Shown: positions 8,069 to 61,716, counted from the first letter of the stretch. The stretch is DNA of 64,000 nucleotides from Bilabrum cf. latius (GCA_965178125.1 OZ237757.1:806001-870000), one strand, 5' to 3'. Notes: generated from the sequence alone by a model not told the origin. Translations and numbers: made by a program.

Positions 8069-8164
8069 GGCATCCAATGGGCGGATGGGTCCTGCGGGGT
8101 CAGGGGTTGGCCTGATGGATTGGCTTTCTAGCGCCCTGTGTGACGAGTGCGAATAGATGCTTCG

Positions 8165-8243
8165 GCTGGTGGTGGCCTTGATGCTTGCGTCTGACTCTGC
8201 TTTGCCAATTTTCGAATCGCTTTCATCTTCCAGCAGCAGTGCT
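8165..8243. repeat. ~75-bp dispersed repeat, copy 1 (copy 2 at 10351-10433)
   Basis: Shared core TTGATGCTTGCGTCTGACTCTGCT(T/A)T(G/A)CCAATTTTCGAATCGCTTTCATCTTCCAGCA. Confidence 0.9.
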
Positions 8244-8339
8244 GCAGCCAGCACCATTACCGCGCCGTCATTTTGGCCGTCGCCCAAAGAGCTCTGGTCC
8301 TACAGGTTCACTTTAGCTTGTGTGGCACATGTCCTGAGC

Positions 8340-9938
8340 TCACTCGTTGTCAACCACCACCTCCGCGTCATGCGAGACATGAATGCTGTGCACCCGAACC
8401 AGGTCAACCCGACCGTTCCCATTGCCAGCACACAGGTAGTAGGGCCCCGCCTATTTACCTGGAGGCAGCTTCTCTTCCAGCACGTGCTCAGTGCCCCGGA
8501 CGACCACCACCAACCGACCTTTCACGGTGCCGTCGCCAAGCTCCAGGCGAATAGTGACATCCTCGTCAGCGGCGACCTTCCTTGCCTCTACTTTGGTACT
8601 AGTTCGCCCACGCGATCCCTTCAGCACCTCGCCATTTCGCGCCCATAGCAGAGACTTGTTGCCATTGTCCCACCTGTTCCCAATCTGCTGCCTGGTGCCC
8701 CATGCCACGCCGTACTCCATATCTACCCTAGTTCCGTTCTCCTCTCGACCAGACATGACCGCCTCCATCGTGCCGCTGCGGATGCCCACACCAAAGTGCG
8801 TGTCACGACCAGACGCAGCGACTCGAACCGTCATAGGATCCCCGTCGATAGCCGCGCATCCGTTCGTGCCCGACCACCGCATCGCATCGCCCACCAGTGA
8901 CACCGAGTGCATTCGGCCAGGGAAAAGGCCAGCAGGCAGAGGTTTACCGAGACGTATGTCAGCATCGATGCTTGCACCGGCCATGGCACGCTGCACATCC
9001 GCAGGCAGCCGATGCAGCCTAACGGCACTCGTCGCTACACCAGCGTGACGCATACCTGCAGCGATAGAGCGCGCGACCACTCTCGCCATCTTATCCCGCG
9101 CGCCTGGTGCCCCTGGATCCATCTGTAGCATCTCATGAAGGCCCTCTAGTCCCATCGCGGCGTATGGAATGACGGCCCACGCCCACTCGTCACACCTGAA
9201 ACAGCCGCGGAGAGCGGTGGCTACGGTCGCGGCGCTCTCTTCGACCGCTTCCCTCACGCGCACAGCGGCTTCAGCATGCAGCCGACGGGGCTCCACGCCC
9301 CGTTCAAGCGCAGCCCGCACGTCCTGCACGGCCTCTTCCACCATGCCAAACATTTCAAAGGGCCCGAGGTCGCGGAGGAGCCGCCCCACCATCTCCAGCT
9401 GCTCCTCCGCGCTCTCACGGAAGCGCTCGGTGACGCCATAGTGGGCCCTTGCTGCTTCCTTCGACGTGTTTATACACCTACGCAGCAGCGACGCGAGCTC
9501 ATTCACGGCCGTCACCACGTTGTCATGAGCCTCTATCGAGACCAGAGCCCCCTCGGCAGCCATCAGGCAGGGTGGGCTTGCAGCACCGCTGCCGCAACTG
9601 GCGCCAGCGCTCGCGCCAGCCCCCGAAGCTGCTCCTGCGCCAGCGGCCGCGCCAGCATCTCCGCCTTCACCACCGGTCAGACCACTGGCAGCAGCGCCGG
9701 TCGCCTCGCCGCCCTAGCCCTCGCCCTCGCCCTCGCCCTCTCCACCGGCAGTCGCTCGCCGATCATCCTCCAGTGTCTCCCGCAGTTTTTGCAGGATTGC
9801 AGGCTTTCTCGCCGCGAACTCAAGCAATGCGACATCTTGGGCTTTGGTGGGCACTCCGGGGGCTGTACCTGCCTCGGTATCCGTCGATTCGCAGACTCCT
9901 GCTGCCTGGGGATGCGCAGCGGTTGTGTCCATTGCCAT
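8340..9938 (-). CDS. Hypothetical protein: helical/coiled-coil N-half and possible SPRY/B30.2-like C-terminal domain
   Basis: ORFs 9714-9980 and 8451-9563 share a frame and are joined through TAG 9714. Reading through TAG 8451 extends to TGA at 8340 (..KLPPGK*AGPYYLCAG..). The beta-rich end (HFGVGI, VTIRLELGDG..GRLVVVVRG, GPYYLCA) is SPRY-like. The start could instead be 9980. Confidence 0.65.
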
Positions 9939-10350
9939 ATTCGCTACGAGGCGAAGAGAGAAAAATTGGGGGTGCATCATAACACAACGTTAACACTTTG
10001 AGTATGAGTGCTACTACATGCGGCGAACAGCGCTGCAAAGCCGCCAAAGTGGCAGCGACGGCCCGGCTTCCAGGGTTTGGACACAGTGGACAATCCCCTG
10101 CGACAATCCCCTGCTAGTACTTTTCGGCACGGGGCACTTCATCTCGTCTACTAGCCAGCTAGGCATACCACTATTTTACTGCCATTTCTTCCCGTTACTC
10201 ACGGAATTCTAAATTCAGGGCTCCTTCTGAACCGGGTAAAATGTCGCGTTGGATCCGTGGCAGGCGCGGAAGCTTCCGTGACGTGCACGCAACAATACGG
10301 AAAAACAGATTGCGTGACACGAGCGGCTAGCCGCGCTTGCGTCTTGCTCT

Positions 10351-10433
10351 GCTAGTGGTGGCCTCGCTTGATGCTTGCGTCTGACTCTGCTATACCAATT
10401 TTCGAATCGCTTTCATCTTCCAGCACTGGTGCT
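10351..10433. repeat. ~75-bp dispersed repeat, copy 2
   Basis: Near-identical to 8165-8243, same orientation, with a small indel near one end. Confidence 0.9.
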
Positions 10434-10458
10434 ACCACCACCGTCGGTGTCCTCGTCG

Positions 10459-13188
10459 TCACCTGTCGCCGTCGTCGTCGTCCGAAGAGCTATCGCCCAG
10501 CAGATCCACCACTGCCTCCTCCCCACCGGCCTATGCCGCCACTGCCTTGCGGCCTGATGTCCTCCTGTCCTGGCCCTGGCTCGCACCGCTTTGGCCTGAA
10601 GATGATGATGACGATGATGACGCACTAGGTGTGTTTGTACCACTCGTCACACCGAACGCGAACAGTCCACCAGCATGACTTGGCAGCTGCGTCCGGGGCC
10701 CAGTCTCCGTGCGGGTTCGCTTGCGAGCAGCGCCAGCACCAGCGCCAGCGCCAGCACCAGTACAATCCTGCGCACGACCACCTGCAAGCGGTAGCTGGAC
10801 GATGCGAGCACCACGGCGATGCAGCGAGGAATTCGATTTGGACTAAAGTGGAGCTCCTGGAGTCCTGTCTCCCTTCGATTGGCGCTCAGAGGCCTTGGTG
10901 CGGCTTGCGACTGGGCCCTCACCACCGGCACCCTTGATAGATCTATCTTCATCTTCATCTTCATCTTCATCTTCATCTTCATCTTCGCCACAACCTCCAC
11001 CACCCGTGAGGTCGACGGGCCCCGACGCATCCGAAGCGCTGTTTTGGCTGATGCTGCCCCGCTTCCGCTTCCGCGTGCGACTGCCGGCAAGATTCAGCCC
11101 GCGCTGGCCCGTTGCACTGAACGGCCTATTATGCGAGGCAGAAGAGCTGCTTTGGGCTGGCAGCGAGCTCGAGCTCGAGCCCGAGCCGATGCGTGGCGTC
11201 GAGCTGGCTTCCATCTGCTCAGCAGCTTTAGTAGCAGCGCTTGCAGCAGTACCCGAGCGAGAAGCCCCTGAAGAACGGAGGATCGTCGTCTTCTTCCCGA
11301 ACAGCATGCCGGCTGCGGCGGCCTTGCTCGCGAAGGGGTTGAGCAGCTTGAGGATGCGTCTCCTGTCGGATGCATCTCTGTACACGGTGGGGTGGATGGC
11401 GCCTGGCCTCGCCCACCTGACGAACCGAGTCAGCTCCGAGTAGCTGGAGTGCTCCGAATAGGGCGCCAGCAGTACCGTGGCACTCCCCCGCCGCAGCGTC
11501 GTACGCTTGGCCCCGTGGGCCCATCCAGTCGGGACGATCCCAATGACCCCCGGCCGTTGATCCAGGCCCAGCTGTGCGCGCTGGCTGTTGACCCTGTCGA
11601 GATACGTGTGCATGGCCTGCCAGTCGGGCCGGAAGAACGGGAAGGTCTCGCCGCACAGGTCCATGCCAACGACGTGAAGCGGGCACGTGGCCGCGGGGCT
11701 GGGCGTCGCAGGGTGGCCCGAGACCGGTGAGCTTCCGACGGCGGCTGCACGGCCGGACGCTGTCGCGCTCGATGCAGACGACAATGATGGCGGATAGGCC
11801 GATCGTGCTAGCGCTGGTATCGCCGGTCTACCTGCTCCAGCACCACCGTGCGTTGCACCTGCAGCCCCGCTTTCATGCAGTGGCTGACCAAGAGAGCCTG
11901 CTCGTACTGCTATCTCGCTAGTGTCCCCCCCTGTGCTGCACCTCGCCAGCACACCCTCGCTGATTCCCAGCGCACGCAGCACCTTGAGTTTTCTCGCGCT
12001 GATGTACGCTGTGTCTAGAGGTTTTGACACGAATCTGCTTCCTTGGCTGCTTGGAATTGGCACCTCCGGGCTGCTAACACCATGTCCATTGCGCAAACTC
12101 CCACCTGCACCTGCATCTGCACCTGCACCTGCTGTACCTGCCATCGGACCCAAATCAAGATCCAGGAGAGCCTCAAGGACCTTCTCTTTGCCTACCACGT
12201 ACGCAGCCAGCAGCACCAGCGGGGTTGGCCCAGCGCCACCGTGCCCTGCACTAGACTCGCTGGATGTGGGCTTTGTCCCTGCTGCTGGCGGTGAGCCCGA
12301 TGTCGCACAATCGCGATCTTCTGTGCAGCCAGTAGCATGAGGCAGTCCATGTGCGCTGGAATCAGTCCCTACAGTGCTGTTGTCGCCTGCTGCTTTGTCG
12401 CCTGTGGCGATCACCACTGGCACCTGCATCCTCATCCTCATTCTCTGGATCTCCGCCCTCACCCTGCCGGCGATGGCTGCAACTGCTTCTTGCTGGACGG
12501 GAAAATCATGGCGAGCCCTGCAGTAGGTGGTGTCTACAAATAGGTGGTCTATCTTGACCCTGCGTTTCCCCGCAGTATGGTGCTCCGTCGTGCCTGCCTC
12601 AGCCTCGGTGGAGCCGCTCCGCGGTGCCCTTCTGGGAGGGGATCGCGGCCCCGGACCGACGGCACGATAAAAATAAGGGTACCGCTCCATGCTCGCACAT
12701 GCCCTAAAGTCACCCGTATGGAGCACAATTGTCCCAACAGGTCTCCGGCGAGGCTCGCCGATCCATGCCTTTGTATCAATAGCACGGGATGACGTGTCGA
12801 TGGCAGAATCCACGGCGTGGGCCATCTCTGCTTCTTCCCTGGACCCAAACACTTCAAATAAAAGCATGACAGCTCCTGGGCAATGATTAGCATTACTTGC
12901 TGTTACAATGGCTGGTGTCGAGTTCTCAAGGAGGCGGGGGCAATCGAGTGCAAGCCGAACTATACGCTTAGGCTGCACACCAAGGATCTGCTCTGCAAAA
13001 TCGGCGGTCTTTCCCGAGGCATACAGATGGCATCCCTCCAAAGCAAATGATGATGACAGACCACCATAGTGATCACCGTGTGCATGAGTGAGAAAGAACT
13101 CTGTTGCAGTTCGGCGAGGCTATCTGAAGCCGTCGACCAGGGCTTGTGGAAGACCTGGAACCTCATGTGCCTCTCTTGCTTGATTCAT
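10459..13188 (-). CDS. SNM1/DCLRE1-family DNA cross-link repair nuclease (metallo-beta-lactamase/beta-CASP)
   Basis: MNQAREAHEVPGLPQALVDGFR*PRRTATEFFLTHAHGDHYGGL (HxHxDH), then ANHCPGAVMLLF, LHTGDFR, LFVDTTY, AYVVGKEK, IVPTGW, APYSEHSSYSEL, IHPTV. In-frame TAGs at 13120, 10843 and 10531. Ends in TGA. Confidence 0.9.
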
Positions 13189-14142: not shown

Positions 14143-15417
14143 TCAGCGCGATGATGGTGTCGGCCCAGCCATCCACACACACAGCGTTGCAGCCCCTACT
14201 GTGACGAGTGCGGCCACGCCAGCAGTCCAGGGTCTCCCTGCGATGCTGTGCCGACTGCCGCTGGTCTCGCTCGGCTGCCCCGTACTCGGGCTCGATCCCG
14301 GGAGTTCCTCGCCTTCACCCGACCCCCCATCCACCGATCCACCCGCTCCCAATCGATCCTGCTCCTCCTCCCCCCCCTGCTCCTTCACCTCCTCTGCCCC
14401 CTCCTCTTCTCCCCCCACCGAGGCCCCGCCCCGCCCCCACCCCGCCCGTGCCGCTGCCTCCAGAAGCGCCTGCTCCCACCGACCCGCCTCCCCACGCCCC
14501 ATCCGCACCGCCCCGCCTACCCCATCGCCCCCACCACTCGTCACACCTGTGTCCTCCCTCTCTTCCTCCTGCCGCCCTTCAGCGTCCAGCTCCACCTCGG
14601 GGAGCAAAGCAGCCACCTCCAGTGCCAGGTTCGGGGCCTGCCCCGTCAGCTCCCCGATCCCGAGCCCGCACAAGGTTCCGTCCGATTGCGCGGCGCCGGG
14701 AGGGCTCACCGGGCGGTGCAAGACGTGGCCGGCCTCCACTGCGGAGAACTACGGGCACGGCGTGGCGCCGGTGACGGGCCCTCCCGTGGCTGCTCTGACG
14801 GCGGAGAGGGTGCTGCCGTCCTGCTGCAAGCCGAAGCAGATGTACTGCCCCACCGATGCAGGGTTCGCGTCGTTCCTGGTCAGTAGCGTGATCGCATTTA
14901 TCACTCCGTCTCGCCCAGCCGTCGAGGTTACCCTGCGAGGACTAGTGAGTGTTCGTGGAATAGTAGGTTGATGGCATTTCCACCGTCGACGACAGTGCCG
15001 GCCAGAGAAACGAATCGCAGCGTTAGGTGATTTCATCAGGTCGCCGAAGTATTGGGATGTTACATCGGCCAGATGGTCAAAGTGCACCTCGCTGGATCCA
15101 GTTCAGCAGCTGTGCGGGTGTTCGACACGTCCAATTCATGAAAACTGTCCTCACGCGACTGTCGCTTCCACAACCGATTCTTTTGCAACTACCCTGCCGA
15201 GCAGGTCTTTGGTAGCCACAACAAGCTCCTGTCTTATGGTGGAAGATGTCACAGAGGTTTGTATCGCAGCGCTTCCAATCGTGGTCTCGAGCTCCACCGG
15301 AGATGTAGCGGAGTTGGGGAGCTGCAAAGGACCAACGCGCCACACGCCGCACAGTGTGGCATCCCGTGACTGTAACTGTGCATTCGATAGCACGACTAAT
15401 AAACTGATCCAGAGCAT
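14143..15417 (-). CDS. Hypothetical type I membrane protein (signal peptide, C-terminal TM helix); putative intron 15092-15154
   Basis: Starts MLWISLLVVLSNA. A phase-2 GTGAGG...TCCAG intron removes in-frame TGAs. TAG 14749 is read through. Hydrophobic WTAGVAALVTVGAATLCVWM precedes the TGA. Confidence 0.65.
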
Positions 15418-15967
15418 CCCGTCTTACGACCGAATGATCCTTGCGATGACTCGTTCGCAAAATGCGCGGCGCCGCCGTCGCAACCGTTGGTCGCAGGCCT
15501 TCAAACCCCCTTGTAACCCACATCGAGACGCCCAGTGAGCCCGATCTGAGAGTTTGAAAATGGTATACAACACCATGCACTGGCTCTTTAGCGGCACTAG
15601 TTTGCTTCAGGGTCATGGCAAAGGCTCAAGCGACCGGCACATAGTCTAGTGCGGTTCCAGCGACCCTGGTTCGCAGCGGTTGTAACCTGCGGCCGAACGG
15701 GCTGGTATCCATTTGGCCTCCCTGTGAGGCCCTGTACCGTACTTTCGATACTACATCTTAAGCATGGATTCAATTTAGTTGTTTGTTGTCCCCGAGTGCA
15801 CGAGTAGAGGTGGAGGTACAGGATGGCCGGGCGGCCACGATCCAGCTGGGCTGGTAGCGAGCAAAGCAACGCTCGCGGATGCCAAAAGAGCTCTCCAGCC
15901 CACTGAAGTTCGCTCCAGCAGCTAGTAGCTTGATGAATCATCTCTCGAGCGATCCACAGTCCAGTCA

Positions 15968-18900
15968 ATGGAGAGAAAATCACGGAGTGCGACAGGAAGC
16001 GCCAGACAAACGGGCTCTGCCAAAGCGCCTTCATCCCCAGCCGCCAACGATAGTGGGACAATAAAGCTAAAGGATGGTACCCAGGTAGCTATGACTACCA
16101 AGCTGCAACGACTGACCCGTCATGCTAGCCGGAGCAGCAACGAGCTGCCGCGTGTGAAGTCACGTGCAGCACGAGCCCAGCTTGCACAGCAGTACGGCAG
16201 GACGACGAGCTCCAATCGACGCTCCTCGCCGAGGTCCAGCTTATCATAGAGTGCTCCAGTTTACAGAAGCCCGCCTCGGCCAGTTCGTGGAGCGAGCAGG
16301 CCGATCAGAAGCGACTCCTGCGTGGGGTTACTTGCGACCGAGCGATTGCTCGCAAGCCAGTCCTCCGCGCGAGACATCTTGAGAGATAGCACCGGCATCC
16401 TAGGCGCAGAATCAAGTCTATATAGAGCACATTTGCGCGCGTCGTGGCTCCGCCTTGCCCTTGAGTCGGCTGGGATGCTCCAACCACTAGTAGGGACAGG
16501 CCGTTCGTCAAAACCGATCATCAGCAAGGCGAGCACTGAAGCACCTGCTCGACATCGGCCGAGCATCACCATGTCGCTATAGCCACGGCCCTAGCCAGCG
16601 CTTTCTGCAGCCAGGCATGCTCCTTTGCCCGGGGAGGGTCCGGCCCTCGTGCTCCTGACCGTGGGCGAGCACGAGGAAGGTAGAGCTGGGGGCGGGCACG
16701 ACGAAGGTATAGCTGGGGGCGAGGAGGCGGAATGCAGACGAGAGGGTGAAGGCGGCGCGCTGTCGGGAGGAGCTGGCAGCGTGAAAGGGGCGCTGCATGG
16801 CGCTGGGACTGGCAGCGGTCCGGGTACAGCAGCGACGCAGCACGCTGGAGGTCATGGGGAAGAAAGCCCACCGGCAGGGGAGGACGGGTCCTCGCTGCGA
16901 GCGCTGCTGCAGGAGGCCAGCACCGGTGTGACGAGTGCAAGCGCGGTAGTGGACGGCGGTGTGCACGTGCAAAGGGAAGGTCGCGCCCGGCCGAGTACAG
17001 CTGCCTCCTAGTCCTCGGGCCCTCGATGGGCGGGCTAGCTGCTCCAGCTGGGGTGCGCGCTGCTGCCCGCGGCCCTGGGTGTCAGCGTGCTTGCCGTGCA
17101 GGAGGAGGCCGTGGACGCAGTGATGTCGGGTGGTGTGACGAGTGAGGCCCCAATAGACCCGCTGTGCCGGTCGCTGGCGGTGCTGCTGGTGCTGCTGGAA
17201 TCCCTCTTGGCTGCTGCACCCGTACTGGGTCTGGCTCGCAGCGGTGCAGCGGGCGATGGTGCTTCAGCCAATAGAGGGGAGGAAATGCTGGATTATGTGG
17301 CGCTGCTGCGTCTGGCAGGACAGGGAGCAAGTTGTACAGGAGAGCGGCAAGTGCCGGACGCCGGCACGCGGCTCGCACTGCTCCTGCTCCTGCTCGGCCG
17401 CCCGATGCCTTCCCGTGGTGGTGGTGACAGCCTGCCGTTTGTGCCTCCCATTGACATGGATGGAAGGGAGGGAGCACAGACCGTGGCTGCTGCCGGTCTG
17501 TTGCTCGGTCAGATGCTAGCTAAGGCTGGAGCCGGTGTCGGGGAGCCGCAGCCGAGACGCCCCCATCAAGGTGTCGGCAAGGGGGGCAAGGCAGAGCAGC
17601 GGAACAGGGCGGGGCTAGGGCAGCAGTCGCACGGCATTGCAGTGCAAGCGTGGACGGCGCTGGCGCGACACCCCTAGGGTGCATCGCACGCGGGTGCAGA
17701 CAAGCCGGCCACCCGATCGGATGCTCTGCAGTGGAGGGACAGCCCGCTGCCACTCCCACTGCCTTACCTGCACCTGCTGTCCGTGGACGATGCGCGTTAC
17801 AGAGCCTCTAGGGCTATTGCAGATTGGTCCTCAGTGCCTTTGGTGCGCGGTGGCAGAGATGAACAGTTCGACGAAGAGCAGTCGGTGCTGGGAGGGAGCG
17901 CGCAGCTGACCTCGAGGCTGAGGGCTCTAGCCGAAGGCAGGGAGGCTGCCACGCCCGAGCACGACCAGAACGGTCCGGACAGCGCCCGCGATTCTGGCTC
18001 CGAATCATCGCTGGTCACCTCCATGGCCCGATTGCTGGAGTCGAGTCCGATTGCTGCCACCGCCGCGAGTCGGCTGGTGCTGTCTGCGTGGCACGACGTG
18101 GCACTCTGGATACTCCCTGGGCCACCAGCACCAGTAGGGCAAGATGGATTGATGGCAGGCGGCTCATCGCATGAGAACATGCAGCCAAAAAGCGCTGCAA
18201 GGGGCAGAACGGATCGGCGAGGCAGCAACACCAGCGGCACAGGCCAGCGGCGGCCGCACATGACGAGCGCACCACCGCTGGCAGGCAATGCGAGCCGAGC
18301 CAGGGCGAGCCGTCACTCGAGGCGTCGGTCTGTCGGCGCATCGGGCAAGCGTGGAGCATCGTCCAGACGGCAGGGCGCGCATCATATCTCGAAAACTGCT
18401 GCTCCTGGCGGCGCAATGGGCATGTCGCGCCTACAGATGCGGCGGAGGGCGCGGGAGGCCGCCGCTGCCATCCAGGGGGGCTCCAATCCCAACCGAAGGC
18501 CCTTGGCGCAGCCCCTGGCGCGGCACAAAAGGAGATCTTCGGCAGCTGGTGCCCAAGTTCCAAGCAAGGCTGGTGCGCCACCCGTCACCCCCGATGCGAA
18601 GGAACAAAGTGCCGCCAGCGAGGTCTCTAGATGTACCCCCCACCCGTGCCTCGCCCTCGCCTGCGTCGGTGCCGCGCTTCGAGCGTCGATCAGCGACCAG
18701 CTGCACTGCGAGGCCGCGAAAAAGATCGTTGCGGATCGAAGGGCCGCGCTCAGGGAACAACGTTCCAAGGAACAATCGAGCGACCATCCCGAAGCCGCTG
18801 CGCCCGTTGGGAGGATTAACCCAGGCAGGGGCAAGAGACCACCCATGCCGTCCGTGGGGTAGTGGCTGCAGGGGCTGGGTGCTGGGAGGAGAGGGGAATA

Positions 18901-24900: not shown

Positions 24901-25654
24901 GGCCGGGGTCGGGACTGGTGGCGTGGCCGGGGAAGGTGAGGGGAAGCGTGAGGGGGGCGGTGACGACGGCGGGGGCCAGGCGCTGGGGCTGAGGCTGCGG
25001 CTAGTTGTTCCCCGGGGAACTCGGAGCGATAATGGCGGGGCGAGGGGGCGGCAGGTGGACGAGGGTTGCGTGGGTGCTGCGCTGCTGGGCGGTCGATTGC
25101 TTCAGCTGCTGGTGGGGGCGGGTGCCTCCGAGGGAGAGGGGCAGGAGGGTGATGGGGAGGATGGGAGCGTGGCAGAGAGTGTGACGAGTGAGCAGCGGGT
25201 CGACGGTGGCAGCGGAGAGACCCCGGTGCCACTTGGGGGCGCGAGTGGCCGCTATCACTCGTCACATCAGCCAGGTCAGCTGCTCCGAGGCATGGGCTCG
25301 AGCATCGACGTTCTGCGGCGTCGCCAGTGGTTCCGCAACCAGAAAGCCTCCCCCACGTCGCGAGCTGGTGAGGCTGGTGGCGATGGCAGCACGCGTAGCA
25401 GTGCAGTGCACCCGGACCTGTCGTCCGCTTGGAGGGACGCGTAGGAGGTGCTGGAGGAGGAGGACGGCGAGGTGCTTGCGCAGGCCGTGCTGGAGGCAGC
25501 CCGGGAGGGCGCCCAAGGTGCACTGTATTCGGGTACTGTGCGCACCCGGCTGGCGATGCGTCGGCTCGCCAAGGTGTGGGGCCAGGTGGGTGCGGCTGCC
25601 CAGCACGCCGAGGTGAGCGTGGAGCAGGTGGACGAGCACTCGCTCGGGATTTGA
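15968..25654 (+). CDS. Large hypothetical protein (~3,200 aa; helical and low-complexity)
   Basis: Fourteen track ORFs (15968 to 25448) share one frame. They are separated only by ~24 TAG codons, with no in-frame TAA/TGA until TGA 25652-25654. I recognised no domain. Confidence 0.78.
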
Positions 25655-48200: not shown

Positions 48201-51200
48201 TGGCACATCGTCCTACTCTGGCTCCGCAGGGTCACCCATGTCCTCGTCATCCTAGTTCACCCCGTATGTGGTGGGCAGCTCGATCACGTTGCCTGGTATG
48301 AGCGTTCCTGCGGGCAGTGGGTAGGGCACCAGCGGTGCAGATGCCAAAGCAGGCGATTATTAGAGCGAGAGCGGTGCAGACGGGCGCGCAGACCCCGCCC
48401 CCGGACCTCGAGACCTTGGTCCCGCAGTGAGCGACGACGAGGCGGCCCACAAGGAGTCGCCCTAGCACGAGCAGGAGCAGGAGCAGGAGCAGGGGCAATC
48501 GAGGCACGGCGAGGAGCAGGAAGATGTGGACGCGCAGTTCCGCAGGGAGAACGCAGCCCGCCTCAGGGAGCTGCAGGCAGAGCTGCTCGGGGAGGAGTAG
48601 CAGGCGCCAAACGCCCAGAGGGTTGTATTGGGGGATGCGGGGGCTGGCGCTAGCGCCAGTGCTGCAGGGGGCCAGCTGGGACCGTCGAATGCGGCGAGGC
48701 ACGGCCCGGGCCATCCGGCCCCGTGGTCTCCCTCGTCACACGGCGCTGCTCGGAGCGGCCTCTACGACGACCTGCCCATGGGTTTCTCGTCCTTTAACGG
48801 CTCCGAGTCCGTCATGGGTGCCCCGGGGGACAGCGGGGGCAGCGCCGCCTCTGCAGGTCTCGAGGGTGGCAGATTGCCCACAGACCCGGCTGACGTGGCC
48901 AACCAGCTCGGTCCACACCGGAAGCCGTTTGCTGTGGTGACCCGCCGCCCCAGCGAGTTGCCCCGCCAGATCCGTGAGGCGGCCAGGGCAGGCCAAGAGT
49001 GGGCAAAGTCGAGGCACGATGGCACAGGAAGGTCCTCTGGGCATCAGGAACAACAACAGCAGCAGTAGGAAGCACCGCCCCCGCCCCCACCCTCCTCCTC
49101 TCGACCCCAGCCATCCACTGCTGGCGAGGCCTTGACGGCATCCACATCCACATCCGGATCTACACCTAAACCTACACCTGCACCCACATCATCCACGAGG
49201 CCAAGCACAGGGCGGAAGAGGAAGCTGCTGCCCGAGGCGGACCCTGCCATGGGGGAACCCCTGGATCCGGAGGGGTTCCCGCTGGGGGCCCCCCGGGAGG
49301 CCGCCCCGCGAGAGGAAGACGTGGCCAAAGTGGCGCCCTCCGCCCTGGGGCGGTGGCTCCGTGGATCTCTCGAGTCCCAGGTCCGCCAGGCGGCCAAAGA
49401 GGCGGCCGAGGAGGCAGACCAGATCAGGAAGGGGGCAGAGGACACGGCCAGGAGGGTGACCCCGGCGATGCTGGGGGAGGCGGTCGGGGGAGGCGCGGGG
49501 GCGGGTGCGGGTGCACTGCACGGAGGTGCTGGCGGGGTTGGGCCTCGCCCCAGCCTCGAGCCCGGGCTGGCGGAGATGTTCCGCTAGACTGCCGCGGCGC
49601 CTGGTTTCGTCCCGCTGCCTCTCACCAGGACGGCCGGCCGCGACGTGTGGGGCTCCCACGGTGCCATCGCGCGCACTGCCGCGGACCTGAGGGCGCAGGC
49701 ATCGGCATAGGCGGAGGCGGCGGCTGCTGGGTCGGACGAGTCGAGACCTGGGGGCGTTGCCGCCGGGCGTGACGGATCACAGGGTATCTGGGGAACAACG
49801 GGATCTCATGGAGAGATGCAAGGTGGCGGGAGTTACTCCGATGCAGGCACACCTGCACAGGAGCCGGGACAGTGGCGGCACACGGAGGGGGGGGGGGGCG
49901 CCTCTGGCCGGCGGTGGCCGCGTGATGATGGGCAGCGCCGGGGTGATCCACCTCCCGGATGCGGCAGGCATCGACCGCGCCGCCGCCCAGATCGCGGCAA
50001 GGCTGGGGCCCTCCAGGAACGAGGACGAGGTGTTTGCCGCGATCCTGGGTGACCTGGCCAAAGCGGCGGGCAGGCAGCCCCCGAGGCCCGACCTGCCCGC
50101 GCCTCCGATGGCTCGGCCTGCCGATCCCGATCCAGCGCACCCGATGGCAGAAGGCAACGCGAGGCCGAGCCCGGGCGCTGGCTCGGGGCCAGTGGCCAGG
50201 ACCCCTGCCTCCTTGGCACTGGAGGAGGAGGTGCGTCGCATGGCGGGGCGCGCGGTGGGCGTCCGCGCCGAGTGCGAGACGCTCGAAGGGATGCTGTCGT
50301 CGGCGGCGGCTGACCTGGTGCGGGAAGAGAGCGCGCTGAGCGAGGCTCTGAGCAGACTGACGGACCTGCGCGTGATGGCGAGCGTGCTGGGGCTGCAGGG
50401 AGGTGCCAGTGGGGGAGAGGGGCACCTGCTGGACGAGGACGAGCACGATATGGACATGTAGGACGACTACCCTGATGCCATGGGACTGGCACGGCAGCTG
50501 GGCCGGCGCTGGGGAGGGGGCGCGAGTGGCAGCACCCAGCTGGCCCTTGCTTCCGACGTGTTCTCCAGGCGGCTGGAGGAGCTTGGCGTGGGGGAACAGC
50601 GGCGGGCGGCGGCGGCTGGAGCCGTGCTGCAGCAGGGGCTGCGGCAGCTGCTTCTGGAGCTGCAGGAGCAGGAGATGTCCATGGCCGCTTGGATGCAGGG
50701 GGCGAGGGCGGGCAGCGGCGAGGGCGGGGCCAGGCACCGAGACGGTGCCGCAGAGGTGCTGTCCGCTGCTGGCAGGGCGGGGACTTTGCACGCGGATCGA
50801 GAGCGCCGGCGAGAGGCGGCGCTCCAGCGGGCACAGAGGTCGCTGGGCGCTGACCTGGCGGGTGAGCTGCGAGAGCTTCTGGGTGGCATGGGCGGGGGCG
50901 GGGGCGACGGCGGCATGGGTATCGCGCCGGGGTCTGACTTGGATCTATTCGAGAGCGACAGCCTTGATGGCGATGGGGACGGGGACGGGGTTCGTGATGG
51001 TGATCGTGATGCAGGTGGCGGTCAATCGCAAGGGGGCGGGTCCTATGCCAGCGCCGCGCTTAGGACGTACGGGTCCTTTTTCGAGGGTGCGGGTGCGGGC
51101 GTGGGCGTGGGCAGGGGGGGCAAGTCACCCTCCCCGCCTCCCCCGGGGGGTGACCCCACTTCCCCCCTGGGAATGCGGGGTCCATCGTGGCAGCCTTCCG

Positions 51201-53923
51201 TCCTTCTGGACTCCACGCGGGGACCGGGGCGCTCGCAGGGCAGCAGGAGTGGAGGCGATCCCAACGGATCTGTGCCGAAGCAGCGTGCGGGCGCCGGGAG
51301 GGGCAATGGTGGAGAAGAGGAAGGCGGGGCGCAGTGGGCGGCCCGGGTGCACGAGGGGTACAGCGCCACCCTGCGCGTGCTGCAGACCAAGGAGCGGGAG
51401 GTGCAGGGGCGACTGAGCGGCGCCAGGGAACAAATAGAGGCGCTGGAGGCCCAGAGGTTCAGGGATCTCGAGACCGTGCGCCGCAATGCGCTGCAGCTGG
51501 TGGCCTCGACCGCCCGCGGTGCCGCGACGGCGGGCTCGCCCCTGGTTCCGCACAGAGGCGGCAGGAAGATCCAGGGGGCCCATCGGTCCCACCCTTTTTG
51601 GGGCCTGGGCCTGCTCTCGCTCGCGAACGGGAGGCTGGCGGGGGCGGCCATGGCTGCTGCGGCTGCGGGAGCCATCGCTCCCCTCACCCCGCGGTATGCG
51701 GGGCTGTCGCACGGCAGGTGGGGACAGGGACAGGGACAGGGACATTCGTGGCCAAAGGAACCGGAGATGGAGGGAGAGGGAGAGGGAGGGGGGGGTCTGC
51801 GGCCCGCGGGGCAGGGCGTGGTGGGGTCTGCCGCGCTCCTCGGGGTGCAGCTGAGCGAGGCCCGGGCGAGGGCCAGGGAACACATGGACGCGCAGCTGAA
51901 GTCCGCCGAGTCGGCAGCTGCGCTCGCAGGGCGGAGGGCGGAGGCACTTCGGCTGCGGGTGGGCGAAATGCGCCAAATGCTGGGCACTTGGCGGAGGGAG
52001 CTGGAGCGGGCGGAGCAGGGGCTCAGGGAACAAGAAGAGGGCCGCATATCCGCCGAGAAGCAGGCGGGCGAGCTGGCGGAGGCGCTGCGGGCCCACGTAC
52101 AGGCGGGCGCCAGGACCAGGGAACAAGCCGAGCGGCGCGTGCGCTCCCTGGAGACGGCTCTGGAGGGCCTGCGGGACCAGACGAGGACCGACACGGTGCG
52201 CCGGCTGGAGGCCAGACTCAGGGACGCGCGGGCCCGGGGCAAGCTGCGGGGGGCCAGCGACGGGAGGACCGACCTGGAGGCGGCGCAGGCGGAGTGTGGC
52301 GCGGGGGTGCGGGAGGCGCAGGCGCACGAGGTGCAGAGGGTGAGGGGGGCCCGGGACGGCGTAGAGTCGGAGATGAGGCAGCACCTGGAGCCCGCGCTGA
52401 GGGCGGAGAGGGCGGAGGTGGAGGCCGCGGCGGGGCGGCGCGTGGCGCTCGAGGCGAGGCTGCAGGCGGCCCGCGGGTTGTTGTCCAGGGAACAAGCCGG
52501 CCTCGCGAGGGAGAGAGGGCTGCTGGTCGAGGCCCGGGGGTGGGAGAGGGCATGGGCAGAGGGCAAGGGCGGTGGCAGGGGGCACCCGCAGCTTGAGCTG
52601 GGGGGCCCATCGGGAGCCTCGGGTGCTGGCGCTGGTGCTGGTGCTGGTGCCGACGGGGGTAGGGAGGCCGGCCGGGACTCGGGTCTGTCTGTGGAGGCCA
52701 CTGCAGTCCCTTCGAGTCCGTCAGCGTCAACGCCGGCCGCCGAGCTGGGGGCCGATCCGCAAGAGGAGGAGGAAGAGGAGGATACAGGTCTGCACAAAGC
52801 GGATGCGGAGGGGTCTGCGCGAGGCCCTGCCGAGTGGCACGCCTCGCTGATGGCGATGGCATCGAGGCTGGCAGGCGAGGGGGGGCGGGGCGAGGGGGGG
52901 CGGGGCGAGGGGGGCAATGAGACTCGCGACACGAACCCTGGCGAAGGTTCGATCGTCGGGGGGAGGAGCGAGCAGCGCGCCAGTGGGGAGTCCTGGGGCG
53001 GGAGCGGGCTGCTGGGCCAGCTGCTGCGTGACTGGATGGACGTTGGCGCAAGCGCGGATGACCTTGCGGATCTGCTGGACGTGGTTGCCCCGGACGGGGC
53101 TGGGACTATCGGCAGCAGCGGCGCCAATGGTAACAAGGAGCACGACGCATCGCTTCCAACCCCTCAAGCAGACAGCGCGCGTGCTCTGGCCGCCCACAGC
53201 CCGTCCAACGGCGGTACATCGTCGCAGCCTTCTCTTGCGGCCAGTGGCAAAGCCAAGGCAGTCAGCGACAGGCTGCTCGGCGAGCCGGGGTGGCCGTTCC
53301 GGGGGCGCCCTGAAGCGCTTCACGCGGCCATCAATGAGCTCAAACGGGAGTTTGCTGAACTGCGGCGCCGAGCACCGGGCCTCGTGGACACCTTGACCGT
53401 GCTGGAGGCAGGCAAGGGGTCAACGAGCGCTGAGGTGCCTATGAACGCGATGGTGCGCGCGGGTGTGGCAGAATCGCTGCTAGAGGAAGTGGTGCCTGGC
53501 GCTGGCGAGGACGAGCACGGGCACGGGGATGTGGGTCGTGCGGGCAGTTTTGCATCCGATGCGGTGGCCCGCCGCCTGGCTGCAGGCTTCGCGACTCCTG
53601 GCAAGCCCGGTGAAGTAGGGGGAATCGACACTGGTACCAAGCAGGACATAAACGCTCGCAGGAGCGGGGGGCCTGCCGGTACAGCCGCGCAGCTCACCCC
53701 CCGCAGGTCTGGCCCACTGCCCCGCGTGGCGGCCCTGGCTGGCTCGTAGACCCTGGATGGAAGGCCGCTCTCGCCGTGGGATGCCGCCCGGCTGCTGGCC
53801 GGTGCGGGAGCCACAACAGGATCGGGATCCGGGTCGGGAGGAATGAACGTTGCGTCCTTTGGACGCCGGCCAAGACAGGACCTGGCCTGGCGACGAGCGC
53901 GGGCTTCGAGATAGCGCAAGTAA
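33217..53923 (+). CDS. Giant (~6,800 aa) protein: RhoGEF(DH)-like domain, PH domain(s), PPR-like repeats, C-terminal coiled coil; intron 33247-33435; apparent 1-nt frameshift at a G12 run (49887-49898)
   Basis: DH-like FEVL/TSQAFLVE*IGLLIDCYLDPL, LLVAPVQRPTRLELL and AEVNLAVD. PH-like LRKGVLDKRIGNLLTRRWAGRYY...LSLRAPSQDDAQEWVLAL. PPR-like TYQALMVAFS..LHEGVAPD, AYTAVLDALGDKG and FAALVEACGRPG..MRAQGVEPD. About 28 in-frame TAGs. Ends in TAA 53921. Confidence 0.75.
33247..33435 (+). other. Putative spliceosomal intron (phase 0)
   Basis: GTGAGC donor and TTTCCTCGCAG acceptor. Removes two in-frame TAAs and yields a DH helix-1-like sequence. Confidence 0.7.
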
Positions 53924-56258: not shown

Positions 56259-56604
56259 TCCGATGCAGTATATTAAAAATGGGAGATGCGAGAAACCTCT
56301 TTAAGAATCAGCACAGTCGATACTTTCACACCTATACCATCTGCCAGGTGTGCTTTCTAAACTCTGGCTGTAATCTTTGCCCTATCTGTCCAAAATGGAT
56401 TCAGCTAGACTAGTGGCGCCGCGCACTCTTGGCGGAACCGGATCCGACGGCTCGACCAGGTACGACAAGAAACAAAACAGTAACTCCCGACAAGAAGGAT
56501 AAGACGTGTATATGTACCGCAACATCTTAAAGCAGGCCTCTATCTGTCCATTGATAATAGTGGACATTCAGGATCAACAGCACAGGCGAGCACTGCCGTG
56601 AGTA

Positions 56605-59600
56605 TTACCCATACACCGACCGCGGATCCCTCCGCCTCGAGCGGGGCCCCCTCCTTCCACTGCCACTGCTGCCGGTAGATGCGGATGCATTGCCCGGTGC
56701 TGCCATACCCGGCCGGCCCTCCCTCCGGCCAGAGCCCCGCAACGAGACTGCGCCAGCGTGCGCTGCACCTTGCGCCAGCCCTTCCACCGCAGCTGCAGAC
56801 CCGCCGGCACCGAACTGCCGCTGCAGCCGCTGCAGCTGCCCCTCCGCCGCCCCCGCCCCCTTGGAAAGCATGTCCAGCCGCCTCTGACCACCCCGGCAGG
56901 CCGCGTGCCACGCAGCCCGCCACGCACCCACCGCCTGTTTGGCCACCTGGGCGGGCGGCAGCGACGTGGCTGATGTCGCATCGGCACCCTTGTTCCCTGA
57001 ATTGTTCCTTGACCTCGCTGTTGCAATCTCCCCAAGCGCATCTCGGCAGGCTCTCGCCTGTTCCTCCACCCTGGCCTCCGTGCCCTCGTCACACGCCGCC
57101 GCCGCCTCCAGGGACTGCTCCACCACGTCCACGGCTGCGTCCAGGGCACCCTCCCATGCCCCGCGGTGTGACGAGTGTGCCGCCTTGGCGCCCGCCTCTA
57201 GGCCCCCGACCGCCGCCACCGCGCGGGCCAAGGCCCCCGTGCACCGTGCCTCGATGTCCGCCAGGGAACAAGCCAGGCCCACCGACTGGGCCCCGCCCTC
57301 CGCTGCGGCCACCGCCCTCATGGCCACCCTGGCCCCCGCCTCGTCACCGTGCCACTCGACCTAGGGCGAAGAAGAAGGGGCAGGGGCAGGGGCAGGGACA
57401 GGGGCAGGGGCAGGGGCAGGGGCAGGGGCAGCAGGGGAAGAGAAACCTCCCTCCGCCCTAGGGCTCCCAGCACTGATGCCTCCGGGAATCGATCCCGGGA
57501 TCTCTCCATCCTACCCCGACCCCGAGGCAGCCTCCCAACGCCTCATGGTCTCGGCGCCCGCCCCGGGCACGATCCCGTGTTTGGCCACCCTCCGGAAGAA
57601 AGCCCCCAGCGTGCGCCTCAGCTTGCCCCCCACCAGCTCCTGCACCAGCCAGGACCTAGACTTGGACAGACGCGGCGCCTTCGCCCTGCCCGAGACATGG
57701 CTCGATCCCTGCCCCTGCCCATGCCCCTGCCCCTGTTCCTGTTCCTCCCCGTCCAGTTCCCGCGCCCTCAGGTGCCCGCAAGGCCCCAACTGCCTCGCGA
57801 CCGGATCCTCGGAGACCCCACAGCGGGACCCGACCGCCGCCCCTCCGCCTGTCCCGCCCAAGATCCTCGCCCTGCACGCCACAGCCGCGCTCGTCGCCCG
57901 CATCCCACCCCATTCTCCCCTTTCCTCTCCCTCTCCCTCTCCGATGGCGTCCATCGGATCGGTCTACAGCCCTCGGGGCAGATACCGCAGCACGTCCTCC
58001 AGTGCGCGGCGCCTCTCCTCAGCGGAACCATGCAGCGGAGGCTCCCCGGCGTCCAAATCGGCCCCCAAAACCCCTTCTTTTGCCACCCCTCTGGTAGACT
58101 CCTCCCCCGAGCCAGGCCCGGCAGTCGGGGTTGGAACCAGCAGGGGCACAGAGGCTGACCCCGGGAGGAGAGATCGGACCGTCCGCCCGCAGGCCCTGCA
58201 CAGTGCCACGCCCAGACTGGTGGCCAGAGCGGCACGGCGGGTGCATCCCCGCCACTGGCACATGGGGTGTGACGAGCGCACCGAGGGACGCGGAGGCAGC
58301 GCGCCCCGCAGCCCCTTGCTAGCATCATCCACAAAGCCAGTGCTATTGCCAGTAGCAGGGGCAGTGCCAGTAGCAGCTGCCTCCATCAGCAAGGCCACCA
58401 TGCCCACCACCCTCGGTACAGACCTGCCCCGCGGGATCGGACTCCCCACCGGCCCTCCTTCACCACCTACATCTCCTACCCCTGACCCTACCCCTGCCCC
58501 TATTCCAGAGGAGAGACACCCGCCCGGCCCCAGCGCAGCGAGGCAGGCGCCGTGTGCTCCAGCGAGGAGGGCGGCACCGACAGCGGCATTCGAATCGTCG
58601 TTTTCCGCCCCTGCCAGCACCACCAGCTCCCCCATGCTACAGTGCGATGCACCCGGCAGGCACTTGAAGAGCAGTCCCTCCGCGCCCCCGCCCCCGCCCC
58701 CGCCCCCGGTCTCCCCTGCACACCCTCCTCCTCCACCGGGAGCGCCTCTCACTGATGCACCCGCGTCGTCGCTCGCGTGTTTCAAATTCTACCCGCGCTC
58801 ACTGCTGCACCCTGCAGGCTCAGTGATCGCAGCATCGGCAGCTGATGGGAGGTGTGATGGGACGCGGCCGCAGGCAGGGACGACGCGCGCCATGTGCCGA
58901 CGGAGCACGGCCTCGGCGCCGCGCGCGCTCAGCGGAACGATGAATTCCTGATCCTCCGCCGCGTGGCCCCCCTTGGCCCCCGCCCGCCGACTCCTCCCCC
59001 TGCTCTCCCTCTAATTCCCGCGTGCCGCGCATTCCACAAACAGCTCCGACCCCGCTCGAGATTCAGACTTGTGCCCATGTCCGCCCTTGCTGTCATGCCC
59101 ATGCTCGCACAGCCCGTAGTGCTTGGCGATCACTAGAAGCGCGGCTGCATCCGCCAGCGCATGCTCTATGCTTGAGTCCGTGGCTGGGGCTGGGAGCGAA
59201 GATCCGGCTGCGAGTGGCTCGTCCAGATCGCCAGAGGTGGTCAAAGTGGAGGTGGGCAAAGAGGCACCCGCAGCTGGTGCTCGTCCTCGAGCAGGTGCTC
59301 CGCCGCTGGTCGCAAGGCCCTCGAGCACTCGTCGAGCGCGAGCAGCTGCATCCAGGAAACCGTTCGACATGGCCACATCCAGCTCCGTGGCAGGCACAAA
59401 GACGTCTACGAGCGGCTCAAAAGCGCCACCGCCAGCATCAGCACCAGGACCAGCACCAGCACCAGCACCAGCACCATCACCATGCCTAATGGCATCGCTG
59501 GCCTCAGCACGAGTTGCATGACTGGCCCCAGCAGCGGCGGGGGCCACTGCTGTGGCCCGGATGGCGCAAGGCATCTCACCCGCAAAGTCCGCCCCGTCCA

Positions 59601-61716
59601 CCACCTGGGGGTCTTGCGCGGCGCCGGGGCGGTTCCGCATGTGCCGGTGAAGCCGTGCCTCGACTGCCCACGCATGCCCAGCCCGCGCTCCTGCGGAACC
59701 ATCTGGCGCCGCGCATTCCTCCCGGTAGCTCCTGGCCATGTAGGCCCTGTGCTGGCGGGCCGGGGCCACCAGGGAAGGGGAAGAGGGCTCTGCGGAACCG
59801 GCCGATTGCGCGGCGCCGGCAGCCCGCACCGCGGTCTCGAGCGCGAGCACCGCGGGCAAGGTCGCCACCTCCACATCCTCCTCCTCCTCCTCCTCCTCCT
59901 CCTCCTCCTCCTCCAATCCTCTTGTTCCCTGAGGACCGGTTAACACCCTGAGAACCGGTTCCGCCGCCAGCACGGCCCGCGCCAGGGCACGCGCCGCCGT
60001 CCCCACCAGCGCGCGGCGCCCCTCGAACGCGGCCTCAGATTCGGAGCCGGAAAGCCTCACCAGCACCCTCGAGCCCCCGGCCCTGAGGCGGGGCGCTGCA
60101 GCAGCCGATCCGACCCCGCTGCTCTGGCCACTGCTGCCTCCAGTGGCGCCCGAGCAGCGCGCGTGCACCGCCTCCAGTGCCTCACTCGTCACACCGGCAC
60201 GCAGACCCCCGATGATCCCTAGCGGAAGGGAAGTCGCGCAGAGCACCGCGGGCAGCAGGCCGCTCCATTGCTTCTCCTTCTAGCCTGCCTTGCCCTTGTC
60301 CTTGCCCTTGCTCTTGGCTTGTCTCTGCTTGCCCGCCGCTGCTGCTGCTGCTGCTGCTCCCGCGCTGCCACCACCACCGACTCGCATCCCCGATGCCGCC
60401 AGGCCCGGCCGAGTCCCTCTGCTGGAGGCCCACGATGGCGGGGAGGGACCTCCTCGTGCGGAACCAGTCCCACTATGCGCGGCGCCGGCATACAGGCCCA
60501 GCACCGCTGCCTCAAGCTGCTCATCACTGTCAGCGTGCGCCGCTGATGCCGCTGATGCTGATGTTGATGCTGCAGACCTAGGGGGGCCGAGGGACTGCCT
60601 GTTCCCTCGCAGCGGGATCCGGGCCACCACCCGCAGCGGAACCTGCGCGGCGCCGCCTGATGCCGCCAGCACGTCCCGCCGCATCCCGTCCGGATCCGCG
60701 GGCAGGTCCCGCCCCCCTGCACCTTCGTGCGATGCAGCTAGCGCGCCTCCACCGGCCCACGGGCCGCCAAGGCAGGCGCGGAGCCGTCCGATCCCGTCGT
60801 GTGACGACTGGCCGCCGGGATGGGGGCGGTCCAGCGCGCCACCGTGCGGTGCACCCATGGACACGCACCCGCATCGCCCCACCGTCCCATCGAGCCCTTC
60901 CGACCCCTTGCCCCTGCCTCTGCCCCTCCCCCCCTTGCTCCCCGCGCCCCTGTTGTTCCCTGGCACTGCCAGGAGGCCCCAGTGCACGAGCCGTTTCCTT
61001 GGCACGGTGCCTCCAGCAGGCAGGCAAGCGGCTGTCACGGACCGGAGGGCAGCGGCAGCCACGCCCGCACTGGCACTGGCACTGGCTCTGGCTCTGGCAG
61101 CGCGGTCCATGTCCCCCGCGCCATCCCCACGTGTTATGCCTGTTCCTTGGTTGGTGCCGGGGTCCCCCTCGAGAGCCCGCAGGACACGCTCCTGGTCGAG
61201 CGAGCCCGGGGCCAGACTGCCGGTGACGGCTTCCGGGGGCACGATCGGGAGCAAGACGACGGGGGCAATGGCGCTGGCCAAGCTTGCAGTCTTACCAGAG
61301 CCAGCGCCAATGGCCCCGATGCTGTGGTTGGTGCCAGTGGCGGTTGCTACAGCAGAGGCGGCGGAAGCCGACCAGCGCGAGCTGAGTGCCGCCGCGGTTT
61401 CGATCCAGGCGGCGTGCAGCTGCGCGAGATCGGCCGAACGGCGGGTGGCTTGTCTCTACGTGTCTGCATAGGACCTCACTTCCGTTCGAATGTGTTTGCG
61501 AGCATCCGCAATCGTCTCATGCACAAGCTCGTTGCAGCGGACGGTCGCTTGAACTGTTTCCTTCTCAACGTGCGCGGGCCATAACGACGCCATGCGCTCT
61601 GCTACTCGGCGTATCGAATCAATCTACCCATTGGTTGACTGAAGGGCGATCAAGTTTCTCTTGTTCTGGGCGTGCTTCGCTTCAATATTCGAGTGTAGTA
61701 GTGATGTCGCCTGCAT
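56605..61716 (-). CDS. Large hypothetical protein (~1,700 aa)
   Basis: Five track ORFs share one frame, broken only by TAG (57361, 57511, 57964, 58789, 59011, 60280, 61456, 61624). Ends in TAA. Start is 61716 or 61593. Confidence 0.72.

Follow-up and report, generated by a model that had tools for sequence, protein, structure and literature searches.

The window analysed here, a 64,000-nucleotide (nt) stretch of DNA from Bilabrum cf. latius (GCA_965178125.1 OZ237757.1:806001-870000), is densely sown with a 12-bp word, M1 (CACTCGTCACAC; reverse complement GTGTGACGAGTG), that recurs almost letter for letter inside long genes. Exact, hyper-abundant words that are tolerated within genes are a hallmark of bacterial genomes, where they act as uptake, recombination or methylation signals. 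This window is eukaryotic DNA, and we argue, tentatively, that selection keeps the word in it. Counts of the word in the window cover the full 64 kb and both strands.

Genes, introns and a recoded stop codon

The window is GC-rich (58-75%) and encodes an SNM1/Artemis-type nuclease, a helicase domain, leucine-rich repeat (LRR) proteins and a GH79-like protein, with best relatives that are 31-44% identical. Spliced contigs from runs X5 and X8 reveal two introns, at 13598-13733 (+ strand, 136 nt) and 14933-15154 (- strand, 222 nt). Both have GTGAG..CAG boundaries, CTAAC-like branch sites and a GC content below that of the exons, and most of the large open reading frames (ORFs) appear to be intron-less. 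Because the two introns are ordinary and the best relatives of the genes so distant, the source is a eukaryote without close sequenced relatives. A reading made earlier from the sequence alone (the sequence-only reading) had also taken the host for a eukaryote, and the two GT..AG introns, together with the SNM1, LRR and GH79 genes, bear this out. Searches of the window for tRNA genes and Rfam families gave no match.

The code of these genes is unusual. A codon log-odds track holds one coding frame over blocks of up to 15 kb, and in six such same-frame blocks 57 of the 58 in-frame stops are TAG, the sole TAA being the one that ends the first block. With TAG read as sense, frames of 5,543, 3,308, 1,911, 1,716 and 1,410 codons open up; the long ORFs include 33421-50052 (+), 15728-25654 (+) and 56605-61755 (-). 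Eight ORFs end in TGA and five in TAA, and the + strand holds 580 TGA and 114 TAA triplets. In the SNM1 homologue, one TAG falls within the aligned metallo-beta-lactamase domain, 12 codons ahead of the HxHxDH motif. There are 92 in-frame TAG codons, and codons of the form NAA and NAG stand at about 1:3.5-3.9. Since no TAA interrupts the long frames, where two dozen would be expected if it were sense, we conclude that TAG alone is sense, with TAA and TGA as stops. As for the amino acid, the single informative SNM1 column reads Phe three times, Tyr three times, His once and Lys once in eight homologues (an alignment to the PDB), and both TAG sites in a GH28 alignment fall in unconserved columns. 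At 37666-37683 three TAG codons alternate with Gly codons (KGKG-x-G-x-G-x-G), a stretch that resembles a slipped hexamer repeat carrying TAG.

Among the codes that PMC5304391 presents, one with UAG as sense and UAA and UGA as stops is used by a rhizarian, where UAG means Leu, and by Iotanema, where it means Gln; in Amoeboaphelidium it is UAR, both codons, that is reassigned. An aphelid identity was considered for this recoding and dropped, as TAA is not sense here. No GC-rich alga or stramenopile with this code turned up in the literature on UAG reassignment that we searched. The TAG-only recoding found here adds either another independent instance or another member to a rare variant of the code.

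A 12-bp word in exons and its companions

M1 occurs 14 times exactly, seven times on each strand, and 11 more times with one mismatch, which brings the strands to 13 (+) and 12 (-). The 25 sites are listed here with their strand and with the peptide that they encode, or lie opposite to, in the TAG-sense ORFs.

3243..3254, +: near copy CACTCGTCACGC; sense, frame HSSR
8138..8149, -: exact; outside ORFs, at the edge of a ~90-nt repeat common to 10348-10433
9184..9195, +: exact; antisense to ORF 8340-9989, frame CDEW
10641..10652, +: exact; antisense, GVTS, in the TAG-extended tail of the SNM1-like ORF, a tail of doubtful coding status
14199..14210, -: near copy CACTCGTCACAG; sense to ORF 14143-15102 (doubtful here), LVT
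14535..14546, +: exact; antisense, GVTS, in a stretch of doubtful coding status
16926..16937, -: exact; antisense to ORF 15728-25654, GVTS
17133..17144, -: exact; antisense, GVTS
20621..20632, +: exact; sense, HSSH
23724..23735, -: exact; antisense, (C)VTS
25179..25190, -: exact; antisense, (S)VTS; the opposed copy at 25256 is 65 nt away
25256..25267, +: near copy CACTCGTCACAT (synonymous His); sense, HSSH
35714..35725, -: near copy CGCTCGTCACAC (synonymous Ser on the gene strand); antisense to ORF 33421-50052, GVTS
38984..38995, -: near copy CGCTCGTCACAC; antisense, GVTS
40087..40098, +: exact; sense, HSSH
40257..40268, +: near copy CACTCGTCACAT; sense, TRH
41824..41835, +: exact; sense, HSSH; second motif (M2, below) 152 nt upstream
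45861..45872, -: near copy CACTCGTCACGC; antisense, RDEW
46163..46174, +: exact; sense, SLVT
48730..48741, +: near copy CCCTCGTCACAC; sense, PSSH
57083..57094, +: near copy CCCTCGTCACAC; antisense to ORF 56605-61755, CDEG; M2 94 nt upstream
57166..57177, -: exact; sense, HSSH; M2 95 nt upstream on the same strand
58267..58278, -: near copy CGCTCGTCACAC; sense, RSSH
60183..60194, +: exact; antisense, GVTS
60799..60810, -: near copy CAGTCGTCACAC; sense, QSSH

Such numbers are far beyond chance. We shuffled codons within 100-codon blocks of the TAG-sense ORFs (300 shuffles), and this codon-preserving null gives a mean of 0.01 exact copies (maximum 1) against the 14 observed, 0.20 (maximum 2) against 25 at up to one mismatch, and 4.75 (maximum 13) against 27 at up to two. 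In dinucleotide shuffles, exact copies are absent from all 100, and 0.30 copies (maximum 2) are expected at up to one mismatch. Only two further sites differ from the word at two positions, which is background (about 4.5 expected), so the excess is restricted to the exact and the one-mismatch classes. Each of the 9-mers composing M1 is present in 19-22 copies, versus 0.3-0.45 in 60 shuffles. Neither strand polarity nor regular spacing of M1 can be demonstrated within the 64 kb.

The sequence-only reading had reported the 14 exact copies correctly. Its ten near copies are also all present, although two were placed one base off (the sites begin at 14199 and 48730, not at 14200 and 48731) and a further one, at 60799, was overlooked. 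It had made the word's standing depend on an excess over codon-preserving shuffles and on its reality in the reads, and M1 holds up on both counts. Contigs from four studies (runs X1, X5, X6 and X8, one of which may be the source of the assembly) span eight M1 sites (8138, 9184, 16926, 17133, 20621, 23724, 25179 and 25256); no letter difference is listed at any of them, all listed differences falling at 26031-26411. Independent metagenome assemblies carry the word as well, so that it is not an artefact of assembly or polishing. Contig ends close to M1 (14534, 14540, 17147, 25166) were left out of the argument, the table being a selection that includes joint records, and the joints being caused by the repeated word. 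The joints 9201>14526 and 16937>17129 were likewise rejected as rearrangements, since they are short-side alignments through the shared word.

M1 has a hard core and soft ends. All 11 mismatches fall at positions 2, 3, 11 and 12, and positions 4-10 are invariant in all 25 copies; were mismatches spread evenly, the chance of this would be (4/12)^11 = 6e-6, for positions that were picked post hoc. Four-fold degenerate positions within the core never vary, and 25 of the 31 TCGTCAC heptamers in the window belong to M1. Information amounts to 1.0-2.6 bits per position across all 12 positions and to at most 0.31 bit at any flanking one. A conserved core with degenerate ends is the matrix-like pattern of binding sites, and M1 conforms to it. 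The word is not a palindrome, as GTGTGACGAGTG differs from CACTCGTCACAC.

In blastn comparisons of 150 nt on either side, the flanks are unrelated at 24 of the 25 sites, and similarity extends beyond the word only at 8138. There, M1 terminates one copy of a ~90-nt repeat (8150-8235 and 10348-10433, - strand, 87% identical) that lies just 3' of two minus-strand ORFs, and the M1 part is degenerate in the other copy. The printed flanks show no target-site duplication. The sequence-only reading had called the flanks unrelated and the word no transposon fragment; with the exception of 8138 both statements are confirmed, and we reject an origin from a transposon, a miniature inverted-repeat transposable element or another repeat.

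Of the 25 copies, 12 lie in sense orientation to a TAG-sense ORF, 12 in antisense and one (8138) outside; coding status is doubtful for three of these assignments (10641, 14199 and 14535). That M1 is embedded in coding DNA, as had been claimed, is true only once TAG is read as a sense codon, a point overlooked at the time. The sense copies are read as HSSH (9), LVT (2) or TRH (1), with P = 0.004 for 9 of 12 in one given frame; the antisense copies lie opposite (G)VTS (9) or (C/R)DE (3) and never in the frame that would read TGA. The word is therefore read in several frames and both orientations, as the sequence-only reading had it, yet not evenly across them: use is skewed to HSSH and GVTS. 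Within each frame the codons are fixed, for M1 encodes HSSH in 5 of 5 cases and GVTS in 7 of 7, with rare codons such as TCA (140 of ~1,660 Ser codons), AGT and GGT. As the word is read in five frames on two strands and its codons show no synonymous variation, we reject a protein sequence motif and agree that the signal lies at the DNA level.

We also considered a branch-point or mini-intron signal, prompted by the arrangement GT...word...AG in four + strand copies, and rejected it because frame and codon score continue through the sites. The coding score does not dip around M1 at the 20 sites in five large ORFs, and the two introns shown by spliced contigs do not contain it. The first AG downstream of the 14 exact copies is 2-53 nt away. 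A blastp search for paralogues of the giant proteins, in which presence or absence of the word could be compared, found only three LRR (RNI-like) paralogues, at 25891-28131 (+), 30697-32826 (+) and 54174-56300 (-, inverted). Their proteins are 93-96% identical and share the same three in-frame TAG codons, and none of the genes has M1. Close to the first of them, at 28334-28760, is a tandem array of six 74-bp units.

M1 has company. A second dispersed motif, M2 (CCAGGGAACA(AG); opposite strand CTTGTTCCCTGG, mRNA strand CCAGGGAACAAG), is also strongly over-represented: CCAGGGAACA occurs 15 times against 0.10 in the codon null, and its core GGGAACA 42 times against 6.25. Its logo is matrix-like and ~10 nt wide. 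Six copies of CCAGGGAACAAG are exact and 17 have one mismatch. M2 is biased in strand, with CCAGGGAACAAG on the coding strand in 15 of 17 sites, and those 15 are distributed over three frames (7, 4, 4). Three palindromic dimers of the type GTTCCCC(A/G)GGGAAC were found, at times in the form TGTTC-N6-GAACA.

37340..37351, -: M2 exact (CTTGTTCCCTGG on the - strand, CCAGGGAACAAG on the mRNA strand), frame REQ
52116..52127, -: M2 exact, frame REQ
37340, 39552, 41672, 52116, 52485, 57261: examples among the 17 M2 sites
2795..2810, no strand: M2 palindrome TGTTCCCCAGGGAACA
63245..63260, no strand: M2, the same palindrome TGTTCCCCAGGGAACA
25007..25020, no strand: M2-type palindrome GTTCCCCGGGGAAC
4911, 22023, 23237, 24107, 25329, 34021, 51544, 59631, 59692, 59791, 60457: sites of a third word, GGTTCCGCA

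The ORF at 49691-53923 has five M2 copies and no M1. At its start, over ~360 nt (49691-50052), the 5,543- and 1,410-codon frames overlap on the same strand in different frames, which may mean two overlapping genes, or a single gene that contains an intron or a frameshift. Inside a single ORF, at 56989-57272, M2 and M1 form a mirror arrangement, M2> - 94 nt - M1> - 71 nt - <M1 - 95 nt - <M2, with arms that are otherwise unrelated. A fixed M1-M2 spacing was considered and dropped: about 8 of the 25 M1 sites have an M2-like word within 300 nt, at varied distances, and 94/95 nt is a single case. The third word, GGTTCCGCA, occurs 11 times against 0.7 in the null and in 6 of the 11 lies within a few bases of GCGGCGCC.

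The word in metagenomic relatives

Is M1 peculiar to one genome? A protein-based scan of metagenome contigs with the ORF 38335-41463 gave 311 pattern matches and no relative. We then scanned metagenome contigs for a 14-mer, M1 plus CG, which hit at least 120 loci, mostly single chance matches. Among the loci listed are three relatives, L012 (8.2 kb, GC 0.55), L089 (1.2 kb, GC 0.61) and L108 (3.7 kb, GC 0.59), in which long frames are open only with TAG as sense. Eight other loci (L007, L018, L045, L083, L093, L095, L102 and L109) were dismissed as internal repeats or chance, and L066 as a high-GC frame without other marks. By tblastx and blastn, no orthology of the three relatives to the window emerged, only short, low-scoring pieces, and Rfam and tRNA searches of five metagenome loci gave no match.

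The relatives read the word as the window does. The 9-nt core of M1 occurs seven times in L012, in five distinct contexts, and is read as GVTS, HSSH and GVTSEGVTS, the last from two copies only 3 nt apart; M2 is read as REQ, and opposed M1 copies lie at 50 and 212. L089 encodes GVTS with an exact M1 and HSSH with a one-mismatch copy. L108 has one M1 and an M2 core read as QGT; it encodes a homologue of MLH1, which among named sequences comes closest to those of stramenopiles and Mortierella-like fungi (55-58% identity). The window and L012 share a further match: 8132-8155 and L012:204-227 agree over 24 nt around M1 with one mismatch (11 of 12 flanking bases), a 3' region in the window against coding sequence in L012. 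This may be a weak extended consensus, (T)CG-word.

L012 also offers a glimpse of how the word fares when a gene diverges. Two paralogous copies are near-identical for 448 nt and then fall to 52% identity (100 of 191 aligned bases). Exact matches of at least six bases are limited, in the diverged block, to a 19-mer holding an M2-type palindrome (TGTTC-N6-GAAC), the 10-nt core of M1 and a pair of hexamers. At the core of M1, 10 of 10 bases are identical, versus 29 of 60 to its left; from the core to a shared GAATCT the distance is ungapped, with 9 of the 19 intervening bases matching. The peptides VTS and ALFSEE are conserved too. A second M1, in copy A, aligns without gaps to unrelated sequence in copy B, in a part where the alignment is weak.

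What might keep the word in the genome?

To explain these observations we propose that M1 is a DNA-level word kept by selection as the recognition site of a sequence-specific factor that binds double-stranded DNA, a reading to which we give a probability of roughly 0.4. We favour it because the excess stands against a codon-aware null, the core is hard and the ends soft, rare codons are invariant, the strands are used equally, the word is shared by species 15 GC points apart, and it is conserved like an island in diverged sequence. The balance of 12 sense and 12 antisense copies, in particular, fits a reader of double-stranded DNA. The putative factor would read a non-palindromic 12-bp footprint, for example as a monomer with about four zinc fingers, and would act across gene bodies, in chromatin organisation, replication, recombination or repair. 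Since nearly all of the genome is exon, M1 has to lie in the coding DNA of very large, nearly intron-less exons. The surviving frames would then be those with the cheapest peptides in disordered segments, HSSH in sense and GVTS in antisense, and never the TGA frame; the same peptide cost could account for the strand bias of M2. M2 behaves like M1, and it resembles the site of a dimeric factor.

Known systems offer partial parallels. The sites of CTCF and of the general regulatory factors of yeast, and the M26/CRE hotspot of fission yeast, are non-palindromic or dimeric, with ends less strict than their conserved core; they can occur in coding sequence and show footprint conservation, but are mostly promoter-bound or intergenic and far less dense than M1. 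We know of no eukaryotic factor whose site is an exact 12-mer found every 2-3 kb inside exons. As for the TGACG core, which the sequence-only reading had offered as a clue to a factor site, nothing links it to bZIP factors.

Several points weigh against a selected binding site. An exact four-codon length and sharp edges are also what an in-frame insertion unit should have. With one copy per ~2.6 kb, and more than that in L012, M1 is dense compared with the sites of most known site-specific factors, and that a protein binds it at all is something we infer from sequence. In the non-coding ~90-nt repeat (8138 and 10348-10433), M1 is conserved less well than the sequence around it. The window gives no significant preference of M1 for ORFs over other sequence (1 of 25 copies outside, P = 0.31). 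The 14-mer used in the search contains M1 and so guarantees one copy per relative by construction, although the search design does not account for the extra M1 copies, the shared frames, M2 or the TAG recoding. The paralogue footprint is a single case in which the conserved peptides (VTS, ALFSEE) prevent a separation of DNA-level from protein-level constraint, and aligners are prone to anchor on identical runs.

A broader possibility, about half as probable in our eyes as the selected binding site, is that M1 and M2 together form a lineage-wide eukaryotic genome word, of the kind of Chi, uptake sequences or HIP1, which a dedicated protein would read to mark or maintain the organism's own DNA. 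It could serve self/non-self discrimination, or guide break repair or recombination, and it would be actively kept or spread in exons, persisting through a GC shift of at least 15 points in a protist group with recoded TAG. HIP1 is an 8-bp palindrome (GCGATCGC), highly iterated in cyanobacteria and linked to DNA methyltransferases. M1 resembles it as a short, exact, over-represented word in coding regions, read in several frames, common to relatives (here L012, L089 and L108) and unsettled in its cause, but differs as a 12-bp non-palindrome in a eukaryote from an 8-bp palindrome in bacteria. The DNA uptake sequences (DUS) and uptake signal sequences (USS) of Neisseria and Pasteurellaceae serve natural transformation and often form inverted pairs in terminators; Chi of E. 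coli is polar relative to replication. These words of 8-12 bp are likewise genome-wide and constrained by coding within genes, and a dedicated protein machine reads them. Yet 24 of the 25 M1 copies are in ORFs, and the two close opposed pairs lie in coding sequence rather than in terminators. Nor, within these 64 kb, do the M1 copies show a bias towards one strand such as Chi has (13 on +, 12 on -; 12 sense, 12 antisense). To our knowledge, neither uptake nor RecBCD applies to a eukaryote. The analogy with uptake sequences and Chi in the sequence-only reading had come from abundance, and it finds nothing further to stand on here.

Instead of being kept, the word could be written. In-frame micro-insertion, to which we give the same rather low standing as the genome word, supposes a fixed 12-nt unit laid down by a templated process, candidates being a polymerase or reverse transcriptase that uses a short RNA as template at breaks, and a mobile element that leaves a scar; in exons, the copies to survive would be just those whose four added residues do no harm. 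The length of exactly 12, the sharp boundaries, identical copies in unrelated flanks and the location of M1 in low-complexity protein segments all suit it, as do frames that look like 'clean' four-residue additions (sense 9:2:1, antisense 0:9:3, none reading TGA) and the copies 3 nt apart in L012 (GVTSEGVTS). The palindromic elements of Rickettsia are a precedent in that they persist in ORFs as DNA-level elements, keep the frame and add a tolerated peptide, but they are bacterial, mobile and 100-150 bp long, and M1 has 12 bp and no sign of mobility. What speaks against insertion is the lack of a visible target-site duplication, mismatches that are confined to the ends as decay would not leave them, a core conserved between the diverged L012 paralogues and a non-palindromic form unlike the footprints of inverted-repeat transposons. 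The gap-free second M1 of L012 copy A suggests gain or loss by substitution, in a weak alignment, and M2 resembles a position weight matrix of ~10 nt, no multiple of three.

Repair-driven spread and a role in RNA are less likely. Sequence-directed repair or gene conversion, as suspected for HIP1, might convert near-cognates to the word without any service to the host; this unlikely course would explain hyper-abundance in all tolerated frames and on both strands, the presence of the word across species, and the over-representation of several unrelated words (M1, M2, GGTTCCGCA) in one genome. Known short-patch repair systems, however, fall far short of 12-bp specificity, two-mismatch precursors are not enriched (2 versus about 4.5), and the gradient of near-cognates expected in the core is not seen. 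The sequence-only reading had named sequence-directed mutation or repair next to a binding site, and the present data are compatible with either. We hold it improbable, and more so than repair, that M1 or its complement acts in transcripts, as a site for an RNA-binding protein or by 12-mer pairing within or between mRNAs. Such a role could draw on the 24 of 25 copies in ORFs, on close opposed copies (25179/25256, 57083/57166, L012 50/212) and on the strand bias of M2, but the even split of M1 between sense and antisense means that no single RNA sequence is selected. The motif pairs with probability 0.50/0.60 on the two strands versus 0.57 at 150 control positions, and the mean minimum free energy around it (-29.6/-35.5) equals that of the controls (-34.1, sd 9.5). 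M2 bias can be explained by coding cost alone, and its palindromes point to DNA recognition. Least probable of all, and by far, is an ordinary origin of the word as a codon-biased protein motif, a family of repeats, a signal for splicing or an artefact. It has on its side that frames are skewed to two peptides and that several + strand copies look at first like mini-introns; set against this are two unrelated peptides from two strands, rare invariant codons, unrelated flanks, two real introns (136 and 222 nt) without M1, a coding score without a dip, and sites identical in the contigs of four studies, with independent metagenome assemblies besides.

Searches of the literature for the 12-mer and its 10-11-nt parts met it only in primers and constructs, and a keyword search for 12-mers in excess in the coding regions of eukaryotes brought up nothing relevant. 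As far as these searches reach, words over-represented by hundreds- to thousands-fold have not been described inside eukaryotic exons. M1 is already of practical use as a cheap metagenome marker for its lineage, having found L012, L089 and L108, none of them recognisable by homology to the window. If M1 was written into the DNA, it would reveal a new mechanism of templated insertion. If a protein reads it, M1 would mark a new genome-wide process in an unsampled protist lineage and be a natural example of a DNA code overlaid on the protein code.

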